Of a stretch of DNA of 64,000 bases, positions 4,996-48,890 are shown piece by piece. Source of the DNA: Salinivirgaceae bacterium (GTDB taxonomy: Bacteria > Bacteroidota > Bacteroidia > Bacteroidales > SZUA-534); the NCBI GenBank assembly GCA_024405635.1, contig JAKSOL010000007.1, positions 40,755 through 104,754 of the forward strand. The letters run 5' to 3'. Numbering within the stretch: position 1 is the first letter of the stretch; each line of letters opens with the position of its first letter. The notes below the pieces were generated by a model. The model saw nothing but the letters and a program-made list of their open reading frames with translations. It had not been told where the DNA came from and did no database searches. Both the position numbers and the translations under genes were made by a program.

Positions 4996-6606
<1,611 letters not shown>

Positions 6607-6687: not shown

Positions 6688-7614
6688 CTATTCGGTTTTT
6701 ATCAAATCGCTCTTGGCCTTGCTTTTGTTTACCATTATAACACCAACAACAACCAAAATGGCGGCTACCATTTTTTGCCAGTTGAGCGAGTCCATTCCAA
6801 GATAAATGCTCATTACAGCAGCAATTAGTGGTTGCAAATAAGTGTAAAGGCTTACAACGGTTGGCCGCAGACTTTTTTGTCCCACGGGAATAAGAAAATA
6901 GGCCACAAAGGTTGCCATAATAATCAAGTAGGATAGTTCAAGGTAGTAGTTTGTAGGAATGGTTGAGTAATTAACGCTTGCAAGGTCGGTTACACTGAAG
7001 GGCAACGACACTAAAAGCGAAAACAAAAACATCCACTTCATAAACGTAACTACACTGTATTTGGCAATTAGTGGGCGGAAAATGCCAAGGTACATGGCAA
7101 AAAATACGTTGTTGAAAATTAAAAGCACCACGCCCATCGGTTTGGTTTCCGATACACCATTTGAGCCTAGGCTTACGCTGTTGAGTATAAGCATCACCAC
7201 ACCAGCAAAACCAATAATCACGCCGCCTGCTTTTTTCCATGTAATTGGTTCTTTAAGAGCTATGGCGGCCACAATCATTGTAAAAATGGGCACAAGAGGC
7301 GAAATAATTGCAGCATCAAGTGATGTGGTTATGGTTATGCCAACCAAAAAAGTCATTTGGGTAAGAAACAAACCTAACATTGATGCTATGAATATTTTGC
7401 AAAAGTCGGCACGGTCAATTTTTTCTTTTGGCATAAAAACCGAAGCTAACCAAAGTAGCGCACTAGCGCCAAGTGCACGCAAGGTAAACAACCCTATGGG
7501 CGAAATTATGTGCGAGTTGGCAATACCTTTGCACACAATAATGTTGAATCCAAAAATGGCGTATGCCGTAAAGGCTGCAGCGTGGCCAATAAGTTTGTTG
7601 TTGTTTGCGTCCAT
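6688..7614 (-). CDS. EamA/DMT family transporter
   Basis: 308 aa with about 10 predicted TM helices and the two-fold EamA-like architecture. Confidence 0.75.
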   Translation of the reverse strand: MDANNNKLIGHAAAFTAYAIFGFNIIVCKGIANSHIISPIGLFTLRALGASALLWLASVFMPKEKIDRADFCKIFIASMLGLFLTQMTFLVGITITTSLDAAIISPLVPIFTMIVAAIALKEPITWKKAGGVIIGFAGVVMLILNSVSLGSNGVSETKPMGVVLLIFNNVFFAMYLGIFRPLIAKYSVVTFMKWMFLFSLLVSLPFSVTDLASVNYSTIPTNYYLELSYLIIMATFVAYFLIPVGQKSLRPTVVSLYTYLQPLIAAVMSIYLGMDSLNWQKMVAAILVVVGVIMVNKSKAKSDLIKTE

Positions 7615-12449: not shown

Positions 12450-12536
12450 ATCAAATAGATTGTACTACTTTTGTTAACCAAAAAATGGCAAAAAAATTGC
12501 CGTCAAAACTAATCAAAATTAAAGAGCCATTAAAGC

Positions 12537-13787: not shown

Positions 13788-13793
13788 ACTGAC

Positions 13794-15026: not shown

Positions 15027-15153
15027 TTTTTGCTTGTTGGCTCAAAACCTTGAGTCTTTGTATTTTGGTTTATACACAAAAAAAAGCCGGCAACTTAAAA
15101 GTGTCGGCTTTTTCAACTAATAAACATTTATGAAGTGATTCGGCTATCAAGTG

Positions 15154-15873
15154 TTAAATAGAGCGCTTTTCAACAAATTCGTTAAAAATGTCTTTGTACT
15201 TGTCGGCAACAATAATCATTTCACCGTTAATAACCACGTGGTTGCGTTCAATGGCTTCAATGGCATTAAGCGCAATGATAAACGAGCGGTGAATGCGCAT
15301 AAAACGGTCGGCAGGTAAATTCTCCTCAAGCGTTTTAAGGCTCATAAGCGTAAGCAACGGGCGTTGGCGCGATTTGGTCCAAACCTTAACATAATCTTTC
15401 AAACCCTCAAAGTAATACACATCGTCAAAGTCGATGCGAATTTGTTTGTAGTCCGATTTTATAAAAATGTAGTCGGCTGCAACTTGAGGTTTTTCGTCGG
15501 CTTGTTTTACTAATTTAAACCATTCAAGAGCTTTGTTTGCTGCGGTAAGAAACTCGTTGTAGTCAAACGGCTTAAGAAGGTAGTCAAGAGCATCAACCTT
15601 AAACCCGTCAACGGCATATTTGTCGTAAGCAGTAGTAAAAATGATGCGGCAGTTTTTGTTAATTAGCATTTTCGACATTTCCATACCAGTTAAACCAGGC
15701 ATTTGAATGTCAAGAAAAAGCAAATCAACTTGGTTTTGGTTAACAAAGTTAAGCGCATCCAAACCGTTGCTGAATTTGCCTTTTAGTTCCAAAAACGCAG
15801 TTTTGTTAACATAGTCTTCAATCAAGTCGAGCGCCATTGGCTCGTCGTCGGCAATGATGCAAGTAATGTTCAT
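15154..15873 (-). CDS. LytR/AlgR-family response regulator (REC + LytTR)
   Basis: 239 aa with a receiver domain (IIADDE...DIQMPG) and a LytTR C-terminus (RIHRSFII). Confidence 0.85.
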   Translation of the reverse strand: MNITCIIADDEPMALDLIEDYVNKTAFLELKGKFSNGLDALNFVNQNQVDLLFLDIQMPGLTGMEMSKMLINKNCRIIFTTAYDKYAVDGFKVDALDYLLKPFDYNEFLTAANKALEWFKLVKQADEKPQVAADYIFIKSDYKQIRIDFDDVYYFEGLKDYVKVWTKSRQRPLLTLMSLKTLEENLPADRFMRIHRSFIIALNAIEAIERNHVVINGEMIIVADKYKDIFNEFVEKRSI

Positions 15874-15876
15874 AAT

Positions 15877-16902
15877 CTACACTGTTTCAATTGATAAATA
15901 TGCGTGGTAGCAATCGTTTTCAATATAAGTCTTAAACTCGTGCTTGTTTGGATAAAGCAACAAAAGTTGTTTGCTAAGGTTTTCAATTCCTATCGATGCC
16001 TTTTCGGTAAGGTCGGCACTCTCTTGTTTAACGTATGGGTTTTTTGATGTAAAGGTTATTCTTGTTCCTTCAATGCTAATGTTAAATATGAGTTGCGATT
16101 TGCCTTGAGGCAATATTCCATGTTTAAACGAGTTCTCAATAAGCGAAATAAACATAAGCGGTGCAACTGTAATGCCGTTGGTCGAAGATGGAAAGTTTAC
16201 TTCAACTTCGGTGTGGGCAGCTGTACGCAGTTTCATTAAGTCGATGTATTTGCTCATAAAGTCAATTTCTTTGCTAAACTCAACGCGTTCTGAGTTGGTT
16301 TCGTAAAGCAAATAGCGCATCAGTTTACTCAAACTAATTAGGGTTTCTTTGGCCTTTTCGGGCGAACGGTCAACTAACGAGTAAATGTTGTTGAGCGAAT
16401 TGAAGAAAAAGTGGGGTTGTAGTTGGTATTTAAGGTGTTGCAGTTCTGACATAAGACGTTTGTTGTCGTTGTCGCGCTGTATTTGTTCCATGTTCTGTAG
16501 CCGCGAGTAAGTGCGTATAGCTAAAGCTATAAACAATGGCATAAGCAACGATATTGCGTTAAAGTAGAACATGTACGAGTTAAACATTGGCCTGTCCATT
16601 CCTGGATGGAAAATGTAGTGGCGCAGAATGCTCATTAAGTACGAGCATGCAAACAATGCGGCAATGTTTATTATTACAAATAATATCTTCTTGTTGTTAA
16701 AGAAAAACTTTTTGATGAAGTAGAAGTAGTTGACATAAAACACTACGGCATAAAAAGCAGTGTTAATCCACGAGTGTTCAATTAAAGCTCGCCACCTAAA
16801 AGGTTGTGCGCCGCCTAACATAAACATTGCTGGTATGCCTAACATTGCAATCCACACTAGCAAGTGGCTAATAATAATGGTTGGAGTTCCTGGTTTATTC
16901 AT
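15877..16902 (-). CDS. sensor histidine kinase (LytS/YehU-type His_kinase domain)
   Basis: 341 aa with N-terminal TM helices and the QLQPHFFFNSLN H-box. It is adjacent to the LytTR regulator. Confidence 0.8.
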   Translation of the reverse strand: MNKPGTPTIIISHLLVWIAMLGIPAMFMLGGAQPFRWRALIEHSWINTAFYAVVFYVNYFYFIKKFFFNNKKILFVIINIAALFACSYLMSILRHYIFHPGMDRPMFNSYMFYFNAISLLMPLFIALAIRTYSRLQNMEQIQRDNDNKRLMSELQHLKYQLQPHFFFNSLNNIYSLVDRSPEKAKETLISLSKLMRYLLYETNSERVEFSKEIDFMSKYIDLMKLRTAAHTEVEVNFPSSTNGITVAPLMFISLIENSFKHGILPQGKSQLIFNISIEGTRITFTSKNPYVKQESADLTEKASIGIENLSKQLLLLYPNKHEFKTYIENDCYHAYLSIETV

Positions 16903-39042: not shown

Positions 39043-39077
39043 GTATTATATAATGCTCAATCTAAGACAAGTAAAAC
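39043..39077. repeat. repeat copy 1 (most degenerate, 31/35)
   Basis: GTATTATATAATGCTCAATCTAAGACAAGTAAAAC. Confidence 0.8.
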
Positions 39078-39253
39078 CATATCTACTCTTATCAACGGAA
39101 ATGGACTAAAATGATGTGGAATGTCTACTTTTGTAAAACTAAAACGCAGAAAAACAACGCCGATGTCTACTTCGGTAAATTATTAATTCAATAAAAAATT
39201 TTCTGTGTCTACTTTTTTGAGCTGGTACAAATTTTTTGGTCCAATGTTTTCAT

Positions 39254-39367
39254 TACCGTCATTTTGATATCAATTTTCGAAAAAAGTTACTGTCATTTTG
39301 AGTAGATTTTCCAATATTTTTACCGTCATTTTGAAACTAAATCATAATATTTGTACCGTCATTTTGA
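39254..39367 (+). repeat. four iteron-like copies of TAC(C/T)GTCATTTTGA at 33-34 bp spacing
   Basis: Copies start at 39254, 39288, 39321 and 39354. The last ends 19 bp before the ATG of the DUF4143 ATPase gene. Confidence 0.7.
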
Positions 39368-39385
39368 GCTCAATACTTATTTATC

Positions 39386-40732
39386 ATGGCCGAAATATAT
39401 CAAAGAGAGGCATTGCAAAGCCTCAGGGAATGGAAGGAAAAGGCTGAACGCAAACCACTTATATTAAGAGGTCCGCGTCAGGTTGGGAAAACTACACTCG
39501 TGGATATTTTCTCAAAGGATTTTGAATCGTACGTTTACCTAAACCTTGAAATCGAGGAAAACGCAAAACTATTCGATACGAGCAAAAACATAAACGAGCT
39601 AATAACCTCGATATTTTTCATTGGCGGGCAAAAGATCAACAAGACAAGCAGCCTACTTTTCATCGACGAGATACAGAACTCGGCACAGGCTGTTATGATG
39701 CTGAGATATTTCTACGAGCAGGCTCCATGGCTTTATGTAATATCAGCAGGCTCACTATTGGAAAACCTTGAAAAAAGGAATATCTCATTCCCTGTGGGCA
39801 GAGTGGAATATATGGCTTTGCGTCCATTCTCGTTCAAGGAATATGCGTGGGCAAATCTAGGCGAGGATGTCTACAACGCCATCAACTCCGTATCCATACC
39901 AGAGGCTTATCACAGCAAGCTGATAAAGGAATTCAACACATACACATTGATAGGCGGCATGCCAGAAGTGGTATCCAACTTCATAAAATACAAAGATATT
40001 CTGAAACTGAACGAGATATACGACACCCTGCTGACCGCGTATCGTGATGACATAGAGAAATACGCTCCAAGAGAGAGCATAACCAAGGCAATGCGTTACA
40101 TAATGGAACACGGTTTCCCATACGCGTCGCAGGAAATAGTATTGGGAGGCTTTGCAGGATCGGCTTACAAGTCAAGGGAAATCGGAGAGGCATTCTCGCT
40201 GCTATCAAAATCGATGCTAACAGAACTTGTGTATCCATCCACGTCAACCGAGATACCGGCTCCTCCAGATATGAAGCGCAGACCCAAACTAATGTGGCTC
40301 GATACAGGAATAGTAAACTACGCCTCTGGCCTTAGGAAAGAGATACTTGGCGCCAATGATATTCTCGACGTTTACAAAGGTAAGATTGCGGAACACATTG
40401 TAGGCCAGGAAATAATATCGACCGACAGCAGATGCTCTTTCCGAAGAAGCTACTGGGTAAGAAACAAACAAGGCTCTGACGCAGAAATGGATTTCACCTT
40501 ACAGAAAGACAACAAGATGATCCCAATAGAAGTAAAAGCAGGAACCAACGCACACTTAAAATCGCTTCACATCTATATGGAAGAATCAGATCAGAATGTA
40601 GCCATCAGAATTTGGTCGAACCCGATGCAAATAGATGACATAAAAACTCCGAAAGGCAAAACTTTCAAACTGATTAACCTGCCTTTCTACTATGTGAGCA
40701 AGATAAACGAGATTTTGGAAAAGGAGATATAA
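39386..40732 (+). CDS. AAA+ ATPase with DUF4143-type C-terminal domain
   Basis: 448 aa with Walker A GPRQVGKTT and Walker B LLFIDEIQ. Its length and architecture are typical of COG1373-like ATPases. It lies between the two degenerate repeats. Confidence 0.8.
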   Translation: MAEIYQREALQSLREWKEKAERKPLILRGPRQVGKTTLVDIFSKDFESYVYLNLEIEENAKLFDTSKNINELITSIFFIGGQKINKTSSLLFIDEIQNSAQAVMMLRYFYEQAPWLYVISAGSLLENLEKRNISFPVGRVEYMALRPFSFKEYAWANLGEDVYNAINSVSIPEAYHSKLIKEFNTYTLIGGMPEVVSNFIKYKDILKLNEIYDTLLTAYRDDIEKYAPRESITKAMRYIMEHGFPYASQEIVLGGFAGSAYKSREIGEAFSLLSKSMLTELVYPSTSTEIPAPPDMKRRPKLMWLDTGIVNYASGLRKEILGANDILDVYKGKIAEHIVGQEIISTDSRCSFRRSYWVRNKQGSDAEMDFTLQKDNKMIPIEVKAGTNAHLKSLHIYMEESDQNVAIRIWSNPMQIDDIKTPKGKTFKLINLPFYYVSKINEILEKEI

Positions 40733-40951
40733 GAAAAAAATCGGAGTTTTAGCGGAATCTATCTAAAAAGGGCACATTCCGCTAAAACTCCGAAAGGCAA
40801 ATTTTTAATTATTTATCTGATATTGTGAAAATTAGGCTATGTTCTCAGCAAAATGAGGTAGGGCGTTTTTAGGGATTTTAGGGGAAGTTCGAAAAGGTGA
40901 ATAACCTGCCTTTCTGGTATACGAGCAAGATTTATGTATCGTGATACATAA

Positions 40952-40986
40952 GTTTTACATAATGCTCAATCTAAGACAAGTAAAAC
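40952..40986. repeat. repeat copy 2 (33/35, shares the AATCTAAG variant with copy 1)
   Basis: GTTTTACATAATGCTCAATCTAAGACAAGTAAAAC. Confidence 0.95.
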
Positions 40987-41220
40987 ATAAGCCATACCCA
41001 AATCGCCTTCGTCGATTATTATATTTTTCAATTGTTCGCCTGTAATACGACGTGTTTGCAAAGTTTCCCAACCAAACGGCAGTGTGCCGTCGTTGTTGGC
41101 TTGAATGTAGTTCACAGCCTTAACATTAAGATCAGTTCTTGTTTCTGCTTCGATACAGAAGTAAACATTTTCGTCGCCTTTTATACGAAAAAAATGTCGT
41201 TGAATGTCTATTAGTTTCAT
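40966..41220 (-). CDS. hypothetical protein; last codons and stop are supplied by repeat copy 2
   Basis: 84-aa ORF. The C-terminal VLLVLD* is encoded by the reverse complement of the repeat, so the native 3' end is probably missing. Confidence 0.35.
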   Translation of the reverse strand: MKLIDIQRHFFRIKGDENVYFCIEAETRTDLNVKAVNYIQANNDGTLPFGWETLQTRRITGEQLKNIIIDEGDLGMAYVLLVLD

Positions 41221-41440
41221 AATTCTTGTTTTTATGTATTGTTTAGTTAGTTATTTGTTTATTTTTGCATCGAGTTCAGCGTCTTTATCGCTAAACAATG
41301 AATTGGCTTCCAACAGCGAGAGCAATTGTAGCTCTCCCATCGCGGATAGCCAATTTTTAATTTTACGACTATCGTAATACCACACATTGTTAGTAGCAAT
41401 AGATTGCTCTATTTTAGTACATATTTTATTGTCATTTTGA

Positions 41441-41475
41441 GTTTTACATAATGCTCAAACTCAGACAAGTAAAAC
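41441..41475. repeat. repeat copy 3 (consensus)
   Basis: Exact 35-mer. Confidence 0.95.
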
Positions 41476-41531
41476 TAATACAGAACAAGTACAACGAACT
41501 TGTTAACCGCATGCAGGCGGTGGTCTTTTAG
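41476..41531 (+). pseudogene. 3'-terminal fragment (last ~17 codons) of a HicB-like gene
   Basis: Encodes IQNKYNELVNRMQAVVF*, near-identical to the C-terminus of 43913..44308. It starts exactly at the repeat boundary. Confidence 0.8.
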
Positions 41532-41610
41532 GACTTAATCAACATTAAGGCGGTGCTGCATTCACCGCTTTTTTTTTGCTTTTAAAAAAAATTTTGTAAT
41601 TTTGTAGTGC

Positions 41611-41697
41611 TTTATAAGCATCCCTGGACTCGCTCCGAGATTGGGTTTGTGTCGAAAGGCTCATACCACCAAAGCCTAACAGTGTTAGGCTTTTTTT
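41611..41697 (+). ncRNA. candidate structured small RNA, copy A
   Basis: Upstream lie TTTG (41575-41578), an 18-nt spacer and TAATTTTG (41597-41604), which fit the Bacteroidetes -33/-7 promoter. The body contains a GAAA-tetraloop hairpin. It ends in the terminator AAAGCCTAAC-AGT-GTTAGGCTTTTTTT (41671-41697). A diverged homologous copy lies at 43741-43832 on the minus strand. Confidence 0.45.
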
Positions 41698-41927
41698 GTT
41701 AATGACGAGTTTGTTTTGATGACATTATAGCCGTCGTCAAAGTAATAATATACCTTTATTTTATCTATATGCCACAAATTGTACAATGCGTTGATAGCCT
41801 TATCTGTATCAATACCTCTTTCTAAGCATTGCAACACGATTTCAGCCTTTTGATGATTTATGGCATAACGTGCTTTTTTTTCAATATTACCAGTTCCTTT
41901 GGTTTGTTTCAAATCTGCTGGAATGCC
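41685..41927 (-). pseudogene. 3' half of a gene homologous to 43235..43734, truncated at the repeat
   Basis: The reading frame GIPADLKQTKGTGNIEKKARYA... runs right up to repeat copy 4. It aligns with ...DGIPADLKQTKGTGNIEKYARYA... of the longer copy. Confidence 0.8.
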
Positions 41928-41962
41928 GTTTTACATAATGCTCAAACTCAGACAAGTAAAAC
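41928..41962. repeat. repeat copy 4 (consensus)
   Basis: Exact 35-mer. Confidence 0.95.
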
Positions 41963-42374
41963 TTACAATACCCTTTACAGTGATGTTTTTTATGGTTGCA
42001 CCGCTCGAATACCCGAATAATCCGATACTGCGTGTTTCAGCCGAACTGTCAGCAACATTCATATTCGAAATGGTGTGGTTGTTGCCGTCAAAAACACCTT
42101 TAAACGGATTCCTTGCCTCGCCAATGCTAAACCACGGTTGATTGTTCAGGTCGATGTCCGCAATAAGTTTATAGTGCAAAGTATCAAATCCCTGTGTTCC
42201 GGCACTAACAACATACGACATAAACGCCAGTTCGTTAGCGGTTCCAATAATATATGGCGACTCTTTGCTGCCATCACCTTCTGTGAATTCTTCCATGGCG
42301 CCTTCCCATGCGTCTGCCGCATGAGTGTTAATCACCGCCAACACCATGACGATGCTAATGAATGTAATCTTTCT
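41963..42374 (-). pseudogene. internal fragment of a secreted GLUG-motif-type surface protein gene, truncated at both repeat boundaries
   Basis: The minus-strand frame begins mid-signal-peptide (RKITFISIVMVLAVINTHAADA) directly after a stop contributed by the repeat. It contains PFKGVFDGNNHTISNMNV and IGLFGYSSGATIKNITVKG and ends after about 137 codons inside repeat copy 4. Confidence 0.7.
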
Positions 42375-42409
42375 GTTTTACATAATGCTCAAACTCAGAC
42401 AAGTAAAAC
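42375..42409. repeat. repeat copy 5 (consensus)
   Basis: Exact 35-mer. Confidence 0.95.
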
Positions 42410-42604
42410 TTTTAGATGTTTCAAATCGGAGGGCGAGAATTTGCCCACCTCCGCCTTGTAAGTAACACGTGTTATTTTGCCGTTCTTTACGTAAAAAGAA
42501 ACTTTTACTACATTGCCGTTCTTTACAGCGTGAACGTGAATGGGTTTGTGTTCGCCAGAATAGAACAAAATTTTTATTCCAAGATATTCGTATATTACAG
42601 GCAT
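42395..42604 (-). CDS. DUF4160 family protein, 3' end replaced by repeat sequence
   Basis: MPVIYEYLGIKILFYSGEHKPIHVHA is typical of DUF4160. The terminal VLLV* is encoded by repeat copy 5. Confidence 0.75.
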   Translation of the reverse strand: MPVIYEYLGIKILFYSGEHKPIHVHAVKNGNVVKVSFYVKNGKITRVTYKAEVGKFSPSDLKHLKVLLV

Positions 42605-42676
42605 AAATTAAAACTCCTTATAATGATTATTTGTAATTCCCACGAAAGGCTTACTACTACTAAACGTTGCACAACA

Positions 42677-42943
42677 ATGTGCATTAACAAGATTATTGCC
42701 GATTGTAAAGCATTTAAGATTGGCAAAACTGGCGACCCTCAAAGCAGGGCGGCCAATTATGGCGATTTTGACAAAATGTATCTTTTGGTTCAAAGCAAAA
42801 ATTCGCTTCTGATTGATAGGCTTGAAGGCTACTATACCCAAAAGTATTACGGCCATAAAAAAAATATGAATATAAACAGAGGTTCTGCGGCTGTTATGGC
42901 TTCTTCTCATAGGACTTACTATTTATATATTGTTGTCAAATAG
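42677..42943 (+). CDS. hypothetical protein (88 aa)
   Basis: The start is taken at ATG 42677 (MCINKIIADCKAFKIGKTGDPQSR...). The upstream part of track ORF 42416..42943 is antisense to the DUF4160 gene. No family was recognised with confidence. Confidence 0.35.
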   Translation: MCINKIIADCKAFKIGKTGDPQSRAANYGDFDKMYLLVQSKNSLLIDRLEGYYTQKYYGHKKNMNINRGSAAVMASSHRTYYLYIVVK

Positions 42944-43192
42944 GCCATTATACATACTTAACGGATTTATGTCTGCTCCGTTGTCCCAAGTAACAATGCC
43001 GTCAACTACGCCAACTTTGGCAAATAATTCTTTGTCGATTAAGGCCTTAAAAACTGGGAAATAGCCTTTTTGTATGTTGTTTTTTAGATAGCATATTTTT
43101 TCTGTGCCATCATAAAATTGCACTTGTAAGGCATATTCGTCTATGTTATATACTTTAACCGACTTCACATCAAAAAAGGCTTTTTCCTTCAT
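42923..43192 (-). CDS. DUF2442 family protein
   Basis: 89 aa. The segment ...YALQVQFYDGTEKICYL...VDGIVTWDNGADINPLSMY is typical of DUF2442. The start codon lies only 7 nt from repeat copy 6. Confidence 0.8.
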   Translation of the reverse strand: MKEKAFFDVKSVKVYNIDEYALQVQFYDGTEKICYLKNNIQKGYFPVFKALIDKELFAKVGVVDGIVTWDNGADINPLSMYNGLFDNNI

Positions 43193-43199
43193 TGTTTTG

Positions 43200-43234
43200 G
43201 TTTTACATAATGCTCAAACTCAGACAAGTAAAAC
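43200..43234. repeat. repeat copy 6 (consensus)
   Basis: Exact 35-mer. Confidence 0.95.
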
Positions 43235-43734
43235 ACGATATTAGCAATATTAGTGAGTTGGCTGAAAATCGTGCAGAGTTCATGGCGTATGCGACAAATC
43301 CTGATTATACATCTACGTTCGACACTGGCAGCGGTGGTTTCTTGGCTAAACATAACTCACGAATACCTAACGACTCAACGTCAAAGAACGATATAGAGAA
43401 GTATGAGAAAGAAATAAGAATGTGCGATGTATTCGTAAAGGCTGGGCACAAGATTGTTTACAAAGAAGATGTCCAAGGGGAGTATGATGTGTTATTTGAC
43501 GGAATTCCAGCAGATTTGAAACAAACCAAAGGAACTGGTAATATCGAGAAATACGCAAGGTACGCCGTGAAGAGTCAGAAAGCAAAAATGGTGCTTTTTT
43601 GTTTGGAAAAGGACATAAATAGAAACAAAGCGGAGGAGGCACTAAGAGCGTTGTATATAGTAGATAAAATCAAAGTGTTGTATTATTATGAGGACAATAC
43701 GAATGTTGTTTTGTCTAATAAATCACTTCTATAA
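43235..43734 (+). CDS. hypothetical protein with possible PD-(D/E)xK-like motif (polymorphic-toxin / polyvalent-protein style)
   Basis: The frame is open from repeat copy 6, and the first internal ATG is at 43282 (MAYATNPDY...). The motif EYDVLFDGIPADLKQTKG suggests a D...D-x-K nuclease. The family assignment is tentative. Confidence 0.4.
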
Positions 43735-43740
43735 AATAGA

Positions 43741-43832
43741 AAAGCCCAACAATAACATTGTCAGGCTTTTAGTGGTACGAGTCTTTCGACACGTACCCTA
43801 TCTCGGGGCTAACCCAGGGACTGCCATTTAAG
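43741..43832 (-). ncRNA. candidate structured small RNA, copy B
   Basis: The reverse strand carries TTTG (43865-43868), an 18-nt spacer and TAATTTTG (43839-43846), the same promoter geometry as copy A. It has a 10-bp stem with a GAAA loop and a terminator hairpin (43741-43770) shared with the convergent gene. Confidence 0.45.
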
Positions 43833-43912
43833 ACACTACAAAATTACAAAATTTTTTATAAAAGCAAAAGAAAAAGCGGTGAATGCAGCACCGCCTTAAT
43901 GTTGATTAAGTC

Positions 43913-44308
43913 CTAAAAGACCACCGCCTGCATGCGGTTTACAAGTTCGTTGTACTTGTTCTGTATTATTGCTTTCTGCTTGTCCGATACTGGTACAAGT
44001 TTACGTTTGTATTTGCGCATCATTGCTGCGTTTAGACCTATTTCCTTGGCGAATGCTGTGGCGTTGATAAATGGAAATTGCTCAAAGAACCCAGATATGT
44101 CGTACACGTATTCTACTGCGATATTGTCACTATACCAATCTGGGTATTTCCCTGTTTGTTCCATGTGGTATTTGGCTTGCTCAACCATAACTTCCTCGAA
44201 GCATGTTTTAGCCTCTTGTTCTGTCATGCCACTGCCGTACACGCCTTGCGCATCGTTGGTGTAAATAGCAAAACCTCCGTCTGCGCCCCTCTCAATAACT
44301 GCTTTCAT
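43913..44308 (-). CDS. HicB-like antitoxin family protein (no hicA partner present)
   Basis: 131 aa. The N-terminus MKAVIERGADGGFAIYTNDAQGVYGSGMTEQEAKTCFEE is typical of the HicB/UPF0150 fold, and the C-terminal region is HTH-like. Confidence 0.6.
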   Translation of the reverse strand: MKAVIERGADGGFAIYTNDAQGVYGSGMTEQEAKTCFEEVMVEQAKYHMEQTGKYPDWYSDNIAVEYVYDISGFFEQFPFINATAFAKEIGLNAAMMRKYKRKLVPVSDKQKAIIQNKYNELVNRMQAVVF

Positions 44309-44393
44309 GTTCGTTTAGTTTTATCATTGTTCTTTAAAAAAAAAGTTGAACTGCCCCCCACTAAGGGGAGCAGCGTTCTACTTTAGTCCTGCG

Positions 44394-44428
44394 GTTTTAC
44401 ATAATGCTCAAACTCAGACAAGTAAAAC
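44394..44428. repeat. repeat copy 7 (consensus)
   Basis: Exact 35-mer. Confidence 0.95.
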
Positions 44429-45293
44429 GGCTAACGCTTTTTCAAAGGCAATTACCGAGCGCGAAGTCCGCAAAACCGACAAGTATGCTGCCGAGATTAA
44501 CGCCATTAAAGGCAAGTTGCTCGACTTTATCAACAAAGGCGCTGAAATTAAAGATTCGCACTTTGACAAATACAACGATATTGCTAACAAACAAGTGTTG
44601 CACCCATTTGTAAAAATTGTGCGTGCTTACATTAAGATTAACGGCAAAGAAAACGTTAAAAAGCAAGCCAACACCATTTGCACCAACATTGCAAATCTTT
44701 GCAAAGTATTGCCAGCCGATTTTGAATTTATGGCACAACTTAAAGCAATTGAAAAAAGCTTAAACAACTACATTGAGGGCAAAACAGCAACGCCTAAAAT
44801 GTTGCAAACCGAATTAAGCGGTTTAGGTCGCATTGCCGATAACGACGAAGATGCAAGCACTGCATATTTAGTTACTCTATCAAGAAAAGAAGTGTACGAA
44901 GATGGTTACAGAGATAGTGAAACATTGCTAAAATCTAACGACTACAATGCCGCTATTGCATTTTTTAATGACAAGAAAAAGCAATTGCAAAATATGGCAG
45001 AAGATGATGTTTGCGATTATGATTTAACTATGTGGGTAGGCGACTATGAGGATATTGTAGAAGAAGAATTTGCAGATTTTATAGGAGAACCAACCGATGG
45101 TTATGCGGTTTTAATTAAAGACAGCCATGGTTACTTAATAGAAAATGGCGATGGAAAAACCGAAAGGGATTTTGTGCTCGAAGATTGTAAGGTAAAATTA
45201 GTTAAGAAAGACGAATTAACAGACGAAATACAAATTAGTTTTGGATTTCCAAAACGATGGGTAAAATTAGGTTTAATACCTTCAAGATTATAA
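44429..45293 (+). pseudogene. 5'-truncated ORF of unknown function (mobile-element-like)
   Basis: The frame is open from repeat copy 7 for 100 codons before the first ATG. Track ORF 44346..45293 reads through the repeat (VLHNAQTQTSKT). It shares a YI-x-x-x-TATP motif with the N-terminal part of 45929..46789. Confidence 0.55.
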
Positions 45294-45309
45294 GATATAA
45301 CTAACAACA

Positions 45310-45340
45310 AAAAAGCCGCGCTTAAAGGCGTGGCTTTTTT
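45310..45340 (+). terminator. rho-independent terminator
   Basis: AAAAAGCCGCGC-TTAAA-GGCGTGGCTTTTTT. Confidence 0.7.
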
Positions 45341-45426
45341 ACTTTGACAAGGCAAAGTACCTTGATGGCGCAGGGGCGTTAATCAATATTTCAGCCTAAC
45401 GACAACGTCCGAAACGTATTCCCTGA

Positions 45427-45948
45427 TTGTCCGATGCAAGTATAAGGAAAAAATATATACACAAACAAGATATGCGAGAAAAAATAATAGAATATATCAA
45501 AAAGGCGTGGAACGGCGAAAAATGCAGCAGATTGCTGGATATAACCAGTGCAATTGACATACAAGCACTGGAAGTTGCAAATAGTATAATTGATAAATTA
45601 AACGAAATACAAGATAGAGAAAAATACGACCACATTAAAAAAGTTAAAATATATGCAGTCGATTTTGATCACACAAAAGAAAGACATTTTGGTGCAAATG
45701 AAACAAGGACAGACCAAATACCTTTAACATTTGATGATATACCTTTGTTAGTCGATACTTTATTGTCGCCGCAATTGGTAAGATTAGGAACATTACGCCA
45801 AGATACAGGAGCAGGAATACACTTTATTAGCCAGTTGGATAATGGTAAAATGATTTGCGTACTAATAAAAGTTAAGCCGCAAAAAGAAACTTATAAAAAT
45901 AGAACAATATATAAAAAGAAATTAAAAGATGGAAGCAAGAATAGTTGA
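45427..45948 (+). CDS. PBECR-like (Barnase/EndoU/ColicinE5-RelE-like) nuclease domain protein
   Basis: The motif DFDHTKERHFGANETRTDQIPLTFDDIPLLVDTLLSP resembles the H-x3-RH ... pit-x-eDi pattern of polyvalent-protein nuclease domains. The likely start is ATG 45472. Confidence 0.45.
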   Translation: MSDASIRKKYIHKQDMREKIIEYIKKAWNGEKCSRLLDITSAIDIQALEVANSIIDKLNEIQDREKYDHIKKVKIYAVDFDHTKERHFGANETRTDQIPLTFDDIPLLVDTLLSPQLVRLGTLRQDTGAGIHFISQLDNGKMICVLIKVKPQKETYKNRTIYKKKLKDGSKNS

Positions 45949-46789
45949 TTTTTATATGGTAGAAAACACCAATAAGGACAAACGCCTACGCTTAATGAAA
46001 ATGAAAGCGCTTGCACTGGCTGAACCGCTTGACGGTTTAGCCACAACCAAGTGTGCTAACAATCAACCTGCCGATATTGTTAATCGATATTTGGATTTAC
46101 TCGATAAGCCAACACGCGCCGCCGCAATGGGCGTTTTGTCGTCGGTTGAGCGCTTTATTGAGCAAGCCGATAATAATTACCCTTATATGGCTGAATTTGC
46201 GGCTATGGCTGTAAGTTTGAGCGATTATATTAACGAAGAAACGGCAACACCACAAATTGCAGCCATCGACCTTAATAACATTCATAAAATATCAGGCGTT
46301 AATGTTGATAATAGCGAATTAAAAGGCATTGTAAGTAGTAAAACGCTGCTTGCTCATCAGTTTGAGCCGCTGAACTTTGGTGGTAAGTGGAAACTGTTAT
46401 TTGGTCGCCCAACCGCGCCTTTTAAGGTAATGGTACACGGAGCGCCCGGAAATGGCAAATCAACTTTTGCTATACAATTCGCTAAATACCTTGCCAGCAG
46501 CCACAAGTTGCGTGTATTGTATATTGCTAATGAAGAGAGTTTTACATACACCTTTCAGGAGAAACTTATGCGCCTGAACGCAATAGACGACAACCTGAAA
46601 ATAGCCGATTCGCTACCTGATAACTTTGACGATTATGATGTAGCGTTTTTCGATTCAGTAAACACAATGAAACTCGATATTGACGATTTACGACGAATAT
46701 TCAAACAAAACGACAAAACTTCGTTTGTGTTGATTTTTCAAAACAACAAGAAAGGTCAATTTAGGGGTTCGCTTGAGTGTTTTACATAA
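45929..46789 (+). CDS. RecA-like/AAA ATPase (phage or plasmid type), 3' end cut by repeat
   Basis: Walker A is HGAPGNGKST and Walker B-like is YDVAFFDS. The ORF ends ...GSLECFT* with the last codons and the stop inside repeat copy 8. Confidence 0.55.
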   Translation: MEARIVDFYMVENTNKDKRLRLMKMKALALAEPLDGLATTKCANNQPADIVNRYLDLLDKPTRAAAMGVLSSVERFIEQADNNYPYMAEFAAMAVSLSDYINEETATPQIAAIDLNNIHKISGVNVDNSELKGIVSSKTLLAHQFEPLNFGGKWKLLFGRPTAPFKVMVHGAPGNGKSTFAIQFAKYLASSHKLRVLYIANEESFTYTFQEKLMRLNAIDDNLKIADSLPDNFDDYDVAFFDSVNTMKLDIDDLRRIFKQNDKTSFVLIFQNNKKGQFRGSLECFT

Positions 46790-46813
46790 TGCTCAAACTC
46801 AGACAAGTAAAAC
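46779..46813. repeat. repeat copy 8 (consensus, cas2-proximal)
   Basis: Exact 35-mer, 50 bp from the cas2 stop codon. Confidence 0.95.
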
Positions 46814-46863
46814 AGACTATTGGCTAATTTATTGAATAAGAGTATACTATCATTGGTTTGCTG

Positions 46864-47184
46864 TTAAAAAAAATCAATCAAATCGGGCTTTTTTAGCAAA
46901 ATCTCGTCATTTTTTCGTTTCTGTTTTCGTCCAAAATAATGGTAAGAAGCTTCGTTGTGTTTGTCATCTACCACTACTACACTTATTTGGCATTTGCCGC
47001 AAATAGCTTCCATTATTCGCTTTTTATGAACTAATGCGTTGGCCATAGAGTAACAATACCGTATATATAGATTGGAGTATAACTTATTGAATCCGTCCTT
47101 CTCTAGTTGACGCGAAAAATTCTTTTTACATTCCTTGCCTGTTGATGTGCGGTTGGAAATGTTCATAAAAACGTAAATCCACAT
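46864..47184 (-). CDS. cas2: CRISPR-associated endoribonuclease Cas2 (type II-like)
   Basis: 106 aa. MWIYVF.N...........F...L.KDGF......LY.RYC aligns with my recollection of type II-C Cas2. It lies immediately downstream of cas1 (3-nt gap). Confidence 0.8.
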   Translation of the reverse strand: MWIYVFMNISNRTSTGKECKKNFSRQLEKDGFNKLYSNLYIRYCYSMANALVHKKRIMEAICGKCQISVVVVDDKHNEASYHYFGRKQKRKNDEILLKKPDLIDFF

Positions 47185-47187
47185 AAC

Positions 47188-48045
47188 TTAAAACAATGAA
47201 GGGTAATATATTACACGTCGCTCACCTAAGTAAATCTGCGATAGCGAATAAGTTGTTTGTGACACATCGTCGGGTTTTATTGACTCGTAGAATAGCTCCA
47301 AAATGGCTTTTTTGAAGTTGTGGTCAATGCATCTTTGGCCGATGGTGTATAGTTCAAGCACTTTTTCGTCAACAAATGGTCGATATGGTTCCATAACATC
47401 GTCGCTCAACGGAAAGGAGTTGTATCGGTTTTTATGAAAAACACCAATCATTGGCAATAAACCTGAATTCATTAGCGCACGCGATACTACCGACCGCAAA
47501 ATGGCATATCCGTAGTTTAGCATATCGTTGGGACAATTGCCGTAACGGTCGCGTATAAAATCTTTGCCTAGCAAAAGTTTCCAATATGTTGCGGCTGCCA
47601 AAGCCTCGCGATTTGTTGTGTCGCCACTTTTAACATTCTTATGGTACTTGCTCAACACATCTTCTCCCTTGCCCAATTTTTGTAGCAATAGCGACTGGTT
47701 GTGTATCTTATGTTCTATTATCTGTTTCCAGATTTGTTTTCTAACGGGTTCTGTTGTCGCTAACTGCGCGTTAAAGGTCATTGTTTGCCGTACGTTTGAC
47801 TCTAAGTCTAAAGTCATGCTTACGGGCATGTGGCGCTCGTCGCAAAAAACTATGCTTATGTTGTTTTGAGACAACTTGTTAAGCAGTGGCACAGTGATGC
47901 GTACCGAATGGTTATCGACTAAAATACCCGACACGTCCTCTAACGAACGCATGATTGGGTCTTTATCTTCTTGACAAATTAAAAGCTGCCCATCTTTCAA
48001 CGATAGATCGGCTTTGTTTTCAAATACAAGTGTTTGTTTTGGCAT
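47188..48045 (-). CDS. cas1: CRISPR-associated endonuclease Cas1 (type II subtype)
   Basis: 285 aa, collinear with type II Cas1: IVFCDERHMP, NREALAAATYW, LNYGYAILRS, GVFHKNRYNSFPLSDDVMEPYRPFVD. The catalytic E, H and D/E positions are retained. Confidence 0.9.
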   Translation of the reverse strand: MPKQTLVFENKADLSLKDGQLLICQEDKDPIMRSLEDVSGILVDNHSVRITVPLLNKLSQNNISIVFCDERHMPVSMTLDLESNVRQTMTFNAQLATTEPVRKQIWKQIIEHKIHNQSLLLQKLGKGEDVLSKYHKNVKSGDTTNREALAAATYWKLLLGKDFIRDRYGNCPNDMLNYGYAILRSVVSRALMNSGLLPMIGVFHKNRYNSFPLSDDVMEPYRPFVDEKVLELYTIGQRCIDHNFKKAILELFYESIKPDDVSQTTYSLSQIYLGERRVIYYPSLF

Positions 48046-48167
48046 AATTGTTTTCTAAATGGTTTCTACTAAAGAATGAAAATAACAATGGGTGTGTAGG
48101 TTTGGTTGTACACAACCATATTTTTATTAACCTTGCAGTCTAAAATTTTGGTGGAGATATATCCACT

Positions 48168-48198
48168 AGAGTGCTTGGTAACCTCTTAAAAAACAAGG
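48168..48198 (+). promoter_or_regulatory. preQ1-I riboswitch candidate
   Basis: AGAGUGCUUGGUAACCUCUUAAAAAACAAGG. P1 pairs AGAG with CUCU. The loop CUUG (48174-48177) can pair with the tail CAAG (48194-48197) to form the pseudoknot. There is an A-rich tail, and the ATG at 48201 follows. The pattern parallels the Bacillus and Thermoanaerobacter preQ1-I aptamers, and the downstream genes are yhhQ-queC-queF. Confidence 0.7.
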
Positions 48199-48200
48199 AT

Positions 48201-48890
48201 ATGGTAAAAAAACAACCAACAGTGAGTGTGCTGTTTATGCTTTTCAGTGTACTCTTTTGTGTTTGCTTAATAGCTGCAAACATTTTCGAAACAAAGCAAG
48301 TGGCATTTTTCAGTCACAGCCAAACTGCAGGTGTAATTGTGTTTCCAATTTCGTACATCATAAACGATTGTGTGTGCGAGGTTTGGGGGTACAAAAAAAC
48401 ACGTTTACTCATTTGGCTTGGATTCTTAATGAATTTCTTTTTTGTAGCAGTTGGTGCTTTGTGCGATGCGCTTCCTCCTGCCGAGTATTGGGACAATCAA
48501 GCTGGTTTTCATGCAATTTTTGGACTTGCACCACGCATTGCAGCCGCGTCGTTTGTGGCTTTTGTTTGTGGCTCGTTTATCAATGCTTATGTAATGTCGC
48601 GAATGAAACTTCGCGATGGCGAGAATCGTTTTTCGCTTCGAGCTATCTTAAGTACAATTTTTGGCGAAAGTGTTGACTCTATTATATTTTTCCCATTGGC
48701 TTTGGGCGGCATTGTACCTTGGTCCGAAATGCCATGGCTAATGCTTTTTCAAGTTGGGTTAAAAACTGTGTACGAAATAATTGCTTTGCCAATCACTATT
48801 CGTGTAGTTCGTGCAGTTAAGCGAGCTGAAGGAACCGATGTTTACGATGAAGGTATTTCGTATAGCATTTGGAAATTGTTCGATTTGTAG
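48201..48890 (+). CDS. yhhQ: queuosine precursor transporter (YhhQ/VUT family)
   Basis: Polytopic membrane protein with the VFPISYIINDCVCEVWGY motif. The start is moved from the track GTG at 48171 to ATG 48201, because 48171-48198 is the riboswitch. Confidence 0.8.
   Translation: MVKKQPTVSVLFMLFSVLFCVCLIAANIFETKQVAFFSHSQTAGVIVFPISYIINDCVCEVWGYKKTRLLIWLGFLMNFFFVAVGALCDALPPAEYWDNQAGFHAIFGLAPRIAAASFVAFVCGSFINAYVMSRMKLRDGENRFSLRAILSTIFGESVDSIIFFPLALGGIVPWSEMPWLMLFQVGLKTVYEIIALPITIRVVRAVKRAEGTDVYDEGISYSIWKLFDL

Follow-up and report, generated by a model that had tools for sequence, protein, structure and literature searches.

A cas9-less clade of Bacteroidales type II-C-related cas1-cas2 loci with repeat arrays that hold inserts of 0.15–3.5 kb

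In the window, the whole 64-kb stretch of DNA analysed here, a type II cas1 gene and a diverged cas2 gene lie next to a short leader, eight repeats of 35 nt (R1 to R8) and seven long inter-repeat segments (S1 to S7). The features are as follows, beginning at the cas end.

47188..48045, minus strand: cas1, 285 aa, type II Cas1 of a cas9-less clade (TIGR03639, PADLOC, alignment, tree)
46864..47184, minus strand: cas2, 106 aa, diverged (PADLOC, TIGR01573, alignment with II-C Cas2)
46814..46863, minus strand: leader, 50 bp, from the cas2 stop codon to the first (newest) repeat (read from the sequence)
46779..46813, minus strand: R1, leader-adjoining repeat, GTTTTACTTGTCTGAGTTTGAGCATTATGTAAAAC in the cas orientation
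44429..46778, unstranded: S7, newest, 2350 bp; N-truncated 287-aa ORF, 158-173-aa ORF and a phage-type ATPase cut at R1
44394..44428, minus strand: R2, repeat match
43235..44393, unstranded: S6, 1159 bp; LPD3/phrog_23416 protein (C-terminal 165 aa), sRNA-like stretch between genes, and one complete gene (131 aa)
43200..43234, minus strand: R3, repeat match
42410..43199, unstranded: S5, 790 bp; small gene pair (DUF4160-like, DUF2442-like) and a 175-aa ORF
42375..42409, minus strand: R4, repeat match
41963..42374, unstranded: S4, 412 bp; single frame open from end to end, phrog_30905 match
41928..41962, minus strand: R5, repeat match
41476..41927, unstranded: S3, 452 bp; ~76-85% identity to an inverted stretch within S6
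41441..41475, minus strand: R6, repeat match
40987..41440, unstranded: S2, 454 bp; 84-aa ORF running into the repeat
40952..40986, minus strand: R7, older variant with 2 mismatches, in the GTCTTAGATTG form also found in the related L005 lineage
39078..40951, unstranded: S1, oldest, 1874 bp; complete AAA_14/DUF4143 ATPase gene at 39386-40732 (Pfam match)
39043..39077, minus strand: R8, degenerate terminal copy with 4 mismatches (repeat scan)

All eight repeats reported in the initial annotation were recovered at the same positions, R1 to R6 being identical, and the segment lengths agreed with those it gave. The chance expectation for 35-mer matches in the window was 0. A search of both strands of the whole window allowing up to 7 errors detected no additional copy, whether direct, degenerate or inverted (anti-repeat); the segments are not split by hidden repeats, in line with the initial annotation. 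Two substitutions common to the six proximal repeats were absent from the two distal ones; distal repeats were degenerate also in the related loci L005, L018, L097 and L105. No conserved repeat promoter or repeat hairpin was found.

The Cas1 protein scored 284 bits against TIGR03639 (cut-off 120), matched PADLOC Cas1_II with E = 1e-96 and could be aligned to the E. faecalis and S. pyogenes Cas1 structures 5xvn and 4zkj. In accord with the view that cas1 is intact, the catalytic residues E147, H204 and E219 were present, and they were invariant across the clade described below, from whose Cas1 proteins the 8-aa K-R-P-L loop of canonical II-C Cas1 was missing. Cas2 matched PADLOC Cas2_II (E = 2.5e-13) and TIGR01573 only at E = 0.004, and its canonical catalytic Asp was replaced (N-terminus MWIYVFMNIS). 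It aligned with canonical II-C Cas2, with which it shares the DGF and C-terminal EFF motifs, and is a diverged but real Cas2. The last repeat (end 46813) lies 50 bp from the end of cas2 (46864), as noted initially. Neither cas9 nor a tracrRNA or anti-repeat was present anywhere in the window, which also matches the first description, and there was no Cas9-sized gene: the longest ORF (898 aa) was 36 kb distant and had no NCBIfam match, and the other four of the five ORFs of at least 600 aa encoded RecG, a SiaA-like phosphatase, DsbD and AlaS. The preQ1 riboswitch that had been placed near cas1 could not be substantiated; the only match (48165-48202) was sub-threshold, at 15.1 bits where the gathering score is 39.

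The segments had been said to carry genes. This holds for some complete genes; most of the contents are truncated gene fragments. The S7 ATPase matched phrog_6891 over profile positions 13-159 of 310, and its full-length homologues had 482-500 aa, one of them on a phage contig that also encodes holin, lysozyme and tail proteins. The LPD3-type protein of S6 matched phrog_23416 over profile positions 270-391 of 459. Both ends of S3 cut genes (final 75 codons of the LPD3-like gene, final ~18 of the 131-aa gene), and S4 is an internal gene fragment, since its frame is open from end to end. S2 ended in a 15-nt motif, TTATTGTCATTTTGA, that recurs upstream of the ATPase gene in S1. Four 33-bp tandem motifs precede this gene, whose product corresponds to the PADLOC candidate defence gene PDC-S01 (E = 2e-171).

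The clade was defined by Cas1 proteins with at least roughly 49% identity to the window Cas1. These proteins formed one clan in 100 of 100 neighbour-joining bootstraps, nested among canonical Bacteroidales II-C Cas1. No Cas9-sized ORF was present in any clade locus with enough upstream sequence, and the repeats (34-36 nt) were irregularly spaced at 147-3483 bp, with a median of 586 bp (54 spacers from 12 loci), whereas about 70 sister loci (Cas1 identity of 48% or less) had a Cas9-sized ORF of ~1200 aa adjoining cas1 and spacers of 28-31 bp (1365 unique). Rare inserts of 365-2252 bp between perfect repeats were found in the Cas9-containing sister arrays, so the integrase of this lineage may occasionally take long DNA; no transposase was encoded in the two long inserts of locus L027, the only sister-array inserts screened. 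In one close lineage (L001/L005), cas1 was frameshifted. The architecture was recovered in at least 12 lineages from many projects and assemblers, and long spacing without cas9 characterises the whole family and is no peculiarity of a single locus. No description of the same layout was found in the literature searched.

A comparison of strains for gain at the cas-proximal end, as the initial annotation had proposed, revealed one extra unit beside the leader in L105. This array equalled those of L103, L104, L106 and L107 plus exactly one 557-bp spacer and one repeat adjoining the leader; the Cas1 proteins were the same, and the common spacers were 99.5-100% identical. Similarly, L012 and L013 had cas1, the leader and a distal spacer in common with L014 and differed from it in the two proximal spacers. 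The arrays thus extend at the cas-proximal end, each step duplicating a repeat.

Across the clade, 41 of the 72 insert ORFs ran open into a spacer edge; in several spacers a single frame was open throughout. PHROG profiles and full-length homologues revealed genes cut at repeat edges, the orientation of the insert ORFs was mixed (32 vs 40), and related, nested, inverted spacer pairs occurred in three arrays (S3/S6 in the window). None of the 72 ORFs encoded a transposase or integrase. The inserts are random fragments in either orientation, mostly of phage or mobile-element DNA. Some contained ordinary cellular genes (CstA, AraC plus SDR, TonB_C); these may be flanking chromosome rather than captures. 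Analysis of the insert ends showed A at position 4 in 64 of 108 ends (background 0.29, p = 4e-11). This signature was alike at left and right ends, was seen at every locus and was absent from the canonical sister spacers of ~30 bp. Database searches recovered no exact protospacer for the inserts, and the clade repeat was absent from IMG/VR. The analysis thus shows that cas9 is lost clade-wide, that spacing is long and irregular, that growth is polarised and duplicative, that the inserts are fragments and that their end motif is symmetric.

The initial reading of a type II-derived adaptation module with a polarised array, oversize inserts and no effector was upheld in the window and the clade. 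Of its three explanations, long-fragment integration by Cas1-Cas2 fitted best, because growth is polarised and duplicates the repeat, the fragments are random and in both orientations, and both ends bear the same signature. We consider it reasonably probable that the locus is a cas9-less descendant of a Bacteroidales type II-C adaptation module, whose Cas1-Cas2 inserts long DNA of unmeasured length into an array possibly used via RNA. Cas1-Cas2 would still act as an integrase at the leader-proximal repeat, with the 35-bp repeat duplicated per event as in ordinary CRISPR adaptation. The incoming DNA would be neither measured nor trimmed, so that whole linear fragments of ~0.15-3.5 kb, mostly of phage or other mobile-element origin and occasionally from cellular genes, would be inserted in either orientation. 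Both ends are apparently chosen alike, the strand that would give the attacking 3'-OH tending to end in ...T(T)NNN-3', and probably one Cas1 active site grips each end while the middle forms a loop, as in transposition by casposases; both this looped-out geometry and the role of Cas1-Cas2 as the responsible enzyme are what we infer. In known Cas1-Cas2 complexes, a structural ruler measures prespacers of ~30 bp, and type II-A acquisition requires Cas9; the proposed integration would need to bypass both.

The downstream use is a best guess and the weakest step of the proposal. Read-through from cas1-cas2, for instance, might yield long array transcripts homologous to invaders, and these would work with no Cas effector, in the manner of a piRNA cluster. 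Neither orientation bias nor a conserved repeat promoter or hairpin lends support to such RNA-based use, and the array could also be an archive that a mobile Cas1-Cas2 module leaves as a by-product. In the latter case, the cas1-cas2-leader-repeat unit would itself be a mobile element, a kind of casposon-like reversal that spreads between genomes, with the inserts as a promiscuous by-product of no benefit to the host. We regard this as unlikely. In its favour, the window and L001 were 90.7% identical in nucleotides only over cas1-cas2-leader-first repeat, beginning at the cas1 ATG, with unrelated flanks, and the chromosomal context differed in every lineage. Moreover, cas1-cas2 lay between direct repeats in L020 and L015, L097 had an inverted repeat copy upstream of cas1, and L020 duplicated the repeat plus 101 bp of leader. 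However, neither terminal inverted repeats nor a target-site duplication surrounded the window module, and searches of IMG/VR viral contigs and PLSDB plasmids yielded no member of the clade. The intact, catalytically conserved cas1 through a deep clade suggests selection, which would fit a successful selfish element as well. This alternative concerns the purpose of the module and is compatible with integration by Cas1-Cas2.

We give little credence to an integron-like platform on which Cas1-Cas2 gathers whole useful genes (defence, toxin-antitoxin) for expression. The complete PDC-S01 ATPase in S1, another adjoining the array of L015, the small complete genes in S5 and S6 and the several intact ORFs in some long inserts would suit it, but most inserts interrupt a gene at one edge or at both, several consist of internal gene sequence, and the mixed orientation is accompanied by no common promoter or cassette-like structure. 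The gene-capture function suggested at first is thus disfavoured. Still less credible is a decaying II-C locus that lost cas9 and whose array was then filled by processes unrelated to Cas1, such as mobile-element insertion or recombination with repeat-bearing elements. Descent from II-C was confirmed, the catalytic Asp of Cas2 is lost in many clade members, and one lineage has the cas1 frameshift. Decay itself did not hold up, given a diverse, deep, monophyletic clade with invariant catalytic residues and ongoing acquisition: full-length, mostly perfect repeats flank every insert with no 30-bp spacer remnants, the one observed gain of a unit fell precisely beside the leader, and both insert ends bear a symmetric motif. 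For the recombination with mobile elements bearing the repeat that the initial annotation offered separately, no support was found: the repeat was missing from IMG/VR, and the 72 insert ORFs yielded no integrase, transposase or terminal inverted repeats. Finally, that metagenome assemblers joined unrelated contigs at a common 35-mer is barely conceivable: all loci come from short-read metagenome assemblies, and at the L012 junction that follows a shared 147-bp spacer the assembler may have strayed into a phage genome, but assemblers with k-mers above 35 can resolve a 35-bp repeat, the same architecture recurs across lineages, projects and assemblers, identical arrays came from different samples (L009/L010/L011; L103/L104/L106), and an independent k=31 contig (L098) equalled S7 exactly and stopped inside the repeat at both ends, which argues against the chimera considered initially.

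Among known systems, eukaryotic piRNA clusters offer a functional analogy only: both are genomic archives in which cut-down, nested pieces of invaders lie in either orientation and related elements are sampled repeatedly, whereas the insertion mechanism here is unrelated and transcription or a small-RNA machinery would be hypothetical. Prophage and mobile-element insertions into CRISPR arrays, such as S. pyogenes prophages in CRISPR repeats (10.1101/2020.10.09.333658), likewise place kilobase-scale DNA between repeats; the present segments have no integrase or element ends and recur at every array position clade-wide. Integrons (IntI, attI/attC cassettes) resemble the arrays in their ordered kilobase inserts, the short repeated site between them and the addition of new units beside the enzyme gene, but they use a tyrosine recombinase instead of Cas1-Cas2, imperfect attC palindromes instead of identical 35-mers, and complete cassettes instead of truncated fragments in both orientations. 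Casposons, the Cas1-family casposase transposons, also combine a Cas1-family integrase with kilobase DNA, a target duplication analogous to the repeat duplication, ends treated alike and, as appears here, a mobile module. In contrast to them, the present Cas1 belongs to the CRISPR type II enzymes and not to the casposases, it is paired with Cas2, PolB is lacking, and the cargo is arbitrary foreign DNA that has no terminal inverted repeats and piles up in tandem at one site. The closest relatives are the Bacteroidales type II-C systems (cas9-cas1-cas2, 36-nt repeats, 29-30-bp spacers), within which Cas1 is nested and to which Cas2 is orthologous; the order cas1, cas2, leader, array, the unstructured repeats of ~35 nt, the degenerate terminal repeat and the leader-proximal duplicative growth are common to both. 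The cas9-less loci differ from them in having no cas9, tracrRNA or anti-repeat, in spacers of 147-3483 bp, in a GTTTTA...AAAAC instead of a GTTGTG...ACAAC repeat, and in the symmetric spacer-end motif, the 8-aa Cas1 deletion and the loss of the Cas2 Asp. This branch of Bacteroidales from gut and rumen thus keeps the DNA-capturing half of CRISPR-Cas9 (Cas1-Cas2, leader and 35-bp repeats) and stores pieces of phage and other DNA of 0.15-3.5 kb instead of 30 bp, a behaviour unlike that of described CRISPR systems.

The array in the window was examined with a direct repeat scan, and the genes beside it were classified with profile searches. The core features were as follows:

39043, 40952, 41441, 41928, 42375, 43200, 44394 and 46779, all on one strand: eight copies of the 35-nt repeat
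46864–47184: cas2, diverged (PADLOC Cas2_II, E = 2.5e-13; TIGR01573, E = 0.004 only)
47188–48045, minus strand: cas1 of type II (TIGR03639, 284 bits against a cut-off of 120)

Six of the eight repeats were identical, whereas the copies at 40952 and 39043 carried two and four mismatches, respectively; no copy was expected by chance. The number, positions and identity of the repeats were those given in the initial annotation, as was the leader of 50 bp between the cas2 stop codon and the end of the last repeat. Near-identical direct repeats within 23–55 nt and degenerate terminal copies (here the two distal ones) are features of CRISPR arrays in general, but the intervening segments were not regular spacers of approximately 21–72 bp. 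From oldest to newest, they measured 1874, 454, 452, 412, 790, 1159 and 2350 bp (range 412–2350 bp). A fuzzy scan that covered both strands of the 64 kb and tolerated up to 7 errors per 35 nt revealed no hidden, degenerate, partial or inverted repeat copy. The segments therefore cannot be divided into spacers of normal length, in agreement with the first reading of their lengths, and an anti-repeat for a tracrRNA is absent. In a check for dispersal of the REP or MITE type that covered the 64-kb window, all eight copies of the 35-mer belonged to the array, and the repeats of relatives were likewise restricted to the cas1-cas2 neighborhood. An assembly chimera, which had been named as a possible artifact, is spoken against by contig L098, assembled independently at k=31, which equaled the newest segment (S7, 44429–46778) exactly. 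Both ends of this contig broke off inside the repeat, which is the behavior expected of a k=31 assembler at a genuine 35-bp repeat.

The window Cas1 matched PADLOC Cas1_II with E = 1e-96, and its residues 4–231 aligned with the Cas1 structures of E. faecalis and S. pyogenes. The catalytic residues E147, H204 and E219 were invariant among relatives. Together with the TIGR03639 match, these results confirmed an intact type II Cas1 active site in a protein that nests among II-C Cas1. The window Cas2 could be aligned with canonical II-C Cas2, with its catalytic Asp replaced. Compared with canonical II-C proteins, the Cas1 of the clade to which the window belongs carried D44 for E and H46 for Q, and was missing an 8-aa stretch near the C-terminus with a conserved K-R-P-L motif. 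Cas2 of the clade was without the canonical N-terminal extension, and its catalytic Asp was lost in many members, the window included. Integration does not require the nuclease activity of Cas2.

No effector for array-derived guide RNAs was found at the locus. The largest ORF in the window (898 aa) had no NCBIfam match, and the other four ORFs of at least 600 aa encoded RecG, a SiaA-like phosphatase, DsbD and AlaS; none of these large ORFs was Cas9. No tracrRNA with an anti-repeat was present on either strand of the 64 kb. The ORF survey and the repeat scan thus upheld the earlier statement that the window holds neither cas9 nor an anti-repeat/tracrRNA. Only about 125 bp separated cas1 from the que genes, and no Cas9-sized ORF adjoined cas1 in 12 related lineages. 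The repeat RNAs were unstructured, folding no better than shuffled sequence, which ruled out a repeat hairpin or a Cas6-type processing signal; unstructured repeats are usual for type II. Reading by eye, we saw no conserved Bacteroidetes -7/-33 promoter motif inside the repeats. In the Neisseria II-C system, a promoter lies within the repeat. Rfam gave zero matches at the gathering score across the whole window and only chance-level matches within the segments. A preQ1 riboswitch had been placed near cas1 in the initial annotation; its position was matched by a PreQ1-I candidate at 48165–48202, but the score of 15.1 bits was under the gathering score of 39. This candidate lay directly upstream of a queuosine-precursor transporter, queC and queF, a gene context that a PreQ1-I riboswitch plausibly fits.

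Loss of cas9 extended across the whole clade. Cas1 homologues were traced to contigs from genomes and metagenomes, and the largest ORFs and the best repeat-family spacing were scripted for 97 loci, which split cleanly into two groups by Cas1 identity to the window. The cas9-less group (Cas1 approximately 49–95% identical) comprised the window and loci L001/L005, L002, L003, L006, L007, L009–11, L012–14, L015–17, L018–L021, L097 and L103–110. No Cas9-sized ORF was found beside cas1 in this group, and the genes neighboring cas1-cas2 differed in every lineage. Each lineage had its own repeat of 34–36 nt, usually of the form GTTTTA...AAAAC, at irregular intervals of hundreds to thousands of bases. 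The long irregular array first noticed in the window therefore recurs across the clade, beside cas1-cas2 and without an adjoining cas9. In 12 cas9-less loci, 54 spacers measured 147–3483 bp (median 586), which is again outside the regular 21–72 bp range, and L105, a rumen locus, contained eight further spacers of 270–891 bp. In contrast, the sister group (about 70 loci, Cas1 at most 48% identical) was ordinary II-C, with a Cas9-sized ORF of approximately 1200–1250 aa ending at the cas1 start, arrays with a period of 65–66 bp, and 1365 unique spacers of 28–31 bp.

In a neighbor-joining tree (a distance method), the cas9-less Cas1 proteins formed one clan in 100 of 100 bootstraps, nested among canonical II-C. 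In one sub-branch, which includes the window, the array lay 3' of cas2, and in the other a repeat lay approximately 115–154 bp upstream of cas1, sometimes with more repeats downstream. The best 120 database matches to the window Cas1 (90%-identity clusters) were all at least 52% identical and by inference fall on the cas9-less side, which indicates a large clade of at least 120 such clusters. The clade was common in rumen and gut Bacteroidales. Searches of IMG/VR viral contigs and of PLSDB plasmids turned up no Cas1 of the clade. Its arrays would escape standard CRISPR finders. In the lineage closest to the window (L001 8260–9117 and L005 1–701; Cas1 approximately 94% identical), cas1 was frameshifted in two independent assemblies, leaving an ORF of 191 aa, and a short four-repeat array lay in a chromosomal context unlike that of the window.

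Array growth was polarised and duplicative. The Cas1 protein P0059 was identical on 15 contigs. Loci L103, L104, L106 and L107 had the order leader, repeat, s1 (657 bp), repeat, s2 (726 bp), repeat, s3 (374 bp), repeat. L105, from a different rumen sample, had leader, repeat, a new 557-bp spacer, repeat, s1, repeat, s2, repeat, s3, repeat and onward. The shared parts were 99.5–100% identical, and the most distal L105 repeats were degenerate. This comparison indicates that one long spacer and one repeat were gained exactly at the cas2-proximal end, at which a comparison of strains for gain or loss of segments had been suggested. Loci L012/L013 and L014, which encode the same Cas1 protein, were 99.8% identical from cas1 through cas2 and the leader to the first repeat; their two proximal spacers differed, whereas a distal spacer was common at 99.4%. 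In the window, two substitutions were common to the six leader-proximal repeats, and the two distal repeats retained an older form that was also found in the related L005 lineage. Such a gradient would arise if the first repeat served as the template for every new one. Addition of a spacer and a repeat at the leader end, as in CRISPR arrays generally, was thus evident in the L105 set, in L012/L014 and in the window.

The spacer ends carried a symmetric motif. When the spacers were read inward, 5' to 3', from each end, A occupied position 4 at 64 of 108 ends (background 0.29, p = 4e-11), with enrichment at positions 2–6 and a return to background by position 7. The signal was similar at left and right ends (31/54 and 33/54) and drew on every locus, and internal control positions were flat. 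Put differently, the 3'-ending strand at both spacer ends tended to read ...T(T)NNN-3'. The position-4 signal was absent from the 1365 canonical sister spacers. A motif so specific in position and strand, and shared by the two ends, suggests that an enzymatic step acts on both in an equivalent way.

Long inserts also occurred in Cas9-containing sister arrays, rarely, between perfect repeats and near the trailer end: 2252 bp (12789–15040) and 1015 bp (15077–16091) in L027, 607 bp (12313–12919) in L050 and 365 bp (6731–7095) in L036. The position-4 A was found at only 2 of their 8 ends. The L027 inserts, which were the ones screened, contained no transposase, and one had a weak LPD3-like match. 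These inserts suggest, as an inference, that the integrase of the lineage can occasionally accept long DNA and that Cas9 normally sets the 30-bp spacer size.

The inserts are fragments, neither cassettes nor mobile elements with ends. The ATPase ORF of S7 ran into the repeat and covered positions 13–159 of a 310-position PHROG profile, whereas full-length homologues were 482–500 aa, one of them encoded on a phage contig alongside holin, lysozyme and tail genes. The start of S6 (43235–44393) fell inside an LPD3/phrog_23416 gene (profile positions 270–391 of 459). S4 (41963–42374) was one open frame from edge to edge. S3 (41476–41927, 452 bp) had approximately 76–85% identity to an inverted stretch within S6, and both of its ends were intragenic. 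The 72 ORFs of 70 aa or longer across loci included 41 that were open at a spacer edge. The segments do carry genes, as first reported, but mostly as edge-truncated fragments. ORF orientation relative to the cas genes was mixed (32 versus 40), with no bias that would point to antisense use. PHROG matches across the inserts included a baseplate hub, ATPases, regulators and LPD3 (three times); Pfam matches included the cellular genes CstA, AraC plus SDR, and TonB_C, mostly at distal or atypical positions. No transposase or integrase was found among insert ORFs across loci. Some spacers of L009 and L020 had approximately 70% nucleotide similarity to gut phage contigs. Nested, related and inverted spacer pairs were present inside single arrays in three cases (the window, L097 and L105), indicating repeated sampling of related invaders.

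Several further features of the inserts were observed. In the 12 cas9-less loci, including the window, inward-pointing (N-terminally truncated) genes at spacer edges outnumbered outward-pointing ones approximately two to one: of the open runs of 70 codons or more at 108 edges, 42 faced inward and 22 outward (Wilcoxon p = 0.003). The excess may stem from the mechanism or from selection against truncated proteins that are expressed. On the minus strand, S5 (42410–43199) carried a DUF4160-like and DUF2442-like small gene pair, and on the opposite strand a 175-aa ORF reminiscent of a GIY-YIG or T5orf172-type protein. Such small genes are typical accessories of mobile elements. S3 and S6 contained inverted copies (41596–41700 and 43745–43850) of a conserved non-coding unit of approximately 90 nt between two terminators, the first a hairpin, preceded by a Bacteroidetes-type promoter motif (TTTG, about 18 nt, TAATTTTG). 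Its flanks were approximately 97% conserved and its body had paired-looking changes between the copies. The unit resembles a small RNA gene belonging to the source element; Rfam gave no family for it, only chance-level matches.

In S1 (39078–40951), four tandem copies of a motif with the core TTACCGTCATTTTGA (39246–39369, period 33–34 bp) lay upstream of an ATPase gene (PDC-S01, AAA_14/DUF4143), and a comparable ATPase was also encoded beside the L015 array. A fifth copy was located at 41426–41442, at the extreme end of S2 and abutting the repeat. These motifs appear iteron- or operator-like, and related elements may be the source of S1 and S2. Short duplicates of the 3' end of the S1 ATPase gene followed the gene at 40784–40806 and 40898–40931. 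A 147-bp spacer of L012 that is common to L014 (2725–2871) ran on, with no repeat, into at least 2.2 kb of phage-like genes including an Amidase_2/SH3 endolysin (L012 13810–16170). Either L012 contains a longer form of this spacer, or the assembler ran on from the spacer into the donor phage. In L014, two spacers opened with the same 43-nt sequence (4164–4206 and 5465–5507), 0 and 7 nt after the repeat; the shared start extended to approximately 50 nt in pairwise alignment, with complete divergence beyond. The shared stretch may mark either a favored start site or a DNA end that is conserved among distinct source molecules.

Database searches recovered no source for the window segments. By blastn, no match was found for S1–S7 among 50,697 phage records or for S3–S7 among plasmids. 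In IMG/VR, there were no relatives of the S7 ATPase, no exact match to a 28-mer conserved between S3 and S6 or to a 27-mer common to two L014 spacers, and zero matches to the degenerate repeat pattern. By tblastn, the S7 ATPase had phage matches at 26–39% identity only. The newest L105 spacer had no phage nucleotide match, and its best protein matches were 75–87% identical. Homologues of a gene fragment in this spacer were located in L111 (7800–8695), L112 (3365–5104) and L113 (565–2613), in a cassette-like array of approximately 775-bp units with perfect 28-nt palindromes (GTAGAGACGCGATTAATCGCGTCTCTAC) between them, among toxin-antitoxin genes and next to hisS. This array may represent an integron-like system, or a cassette system of another kind, in Bacteroidales.

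The cas1-cas2-leader-repeat module itself appears to move between genomic sites. Nucleotide identity between the window and L001 (90.7%) was confined to the interval that begins at the cas1 start codon and reaches the first repeat (window 48046–46792), and the 8 kb of L001 had no further match to the window. In L020 and L015, cas1-cas2 was bracketed by direct repeats (L015 repeat at 1–35), and in L020 the repeat plus 101 bp of leader was duplicated exactly (9846–9981 and 13618–13753). L097 carried an inverted repeat copy at 2904–2944, 560 bp upstream of cas1.

The evidence best supports a mechanism in which Cas1-Cas2, independently of Cas9, integrates long linear DNA, not cut to a measured length, at the leader-proximal repeat. 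Among the explanations offered in the initial annotation, this one is best supported by the leader-end gain, the fragmentary inserts and the symmetric end motif. Cas1-Cas2 would catalyze the long insertions, each integration would duplicate the repeat, and both fragment ends would be recognized symmetrically. Two distal active sites may hold the two ends, with the middle looped out as in a casposase. If the array has a downstream function, homology-based use of transcribed long fragments, by analogy with a piRNA cluster, is weakly suggested. The main rival is that the module is a selfish mobile integrase and the archive its by-product. Integron-like capture of whole genes is disfavored because the insert genes are truncated. 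Four findings weigh against insertion of mobile elements and against recombination with elements that carry the repeat: recombinases and element ends were lacking, IMG/VR gave no match to the repeat, L105 had gained a unit at the leader end, and the end motif was symmetric.

Beyond long-fragment integration by Cas1-Cas2, we tentatively consider, as a somewhat doubtful reading, that these loci form a distinct Cas1-Cas2 class: an effector-free, ruler-free archive of kilobase invader fragments at the leader-repeat, with symmetric ends, serving homology-based protection or regulation (through long RNA or recombination) without a Cas nuclease, and compact enough to be mobile between genomes. If so, the loci would be a natural intermediate between the transposition of casposons and CRISPR adaptation. 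If the clade Cas1-Cas2 does insert kilobase DNA without Cas9, the views that the Cas1-Cas2 ruler fixes spacer length and that type II acquisition depends on Cas9 would need revision, the clade would be a living link between casposase-type transposition and CRISPR adaptation, and the purpose of an effector-less memory of long invader fragments would become a question. A small two-protein integrase that writes long DNA directionally and site-specifically beside a 35-bp repeat would also be of interest for DNA recording and large-cargo insertion.

A literature search of limited coverage and consultation of the 2025 CRISPR-Cas classification (PMC12669027) yielded no account of type II modules that lack cas9 and carry long spacers, so that an earlier description is possible. 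The locus differs from integrons, which have the IntI tyrosine recombinase as integrase, palindromic attC sites and complete, co-oriented cassettes; here there was no integrase, the repeats were identical and unstructured, and the ORFs were truncated and in both orientations. It also differs from casposons: the window Cas1 belongs to the type II CRISPR clade with a Cas2 partner rather than to the casposase clade, no polymerase (casposon PolB) was present among the locus ORFs, and the segments were not bounded by terminal inverted repeats, which together with a target-site duplication delimit casposons. The symmetric end motif of the clade differs from PAM-directed, Cas9-dependent selection. 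Measured against type II systems and CRISPR arrays, the locus is without Cas9, tracrRNA and short regular spacers, but it has the Cas1, the Cas2, the repeat and the polarity, and it is a derived, effector-less type II-C adaptation module.
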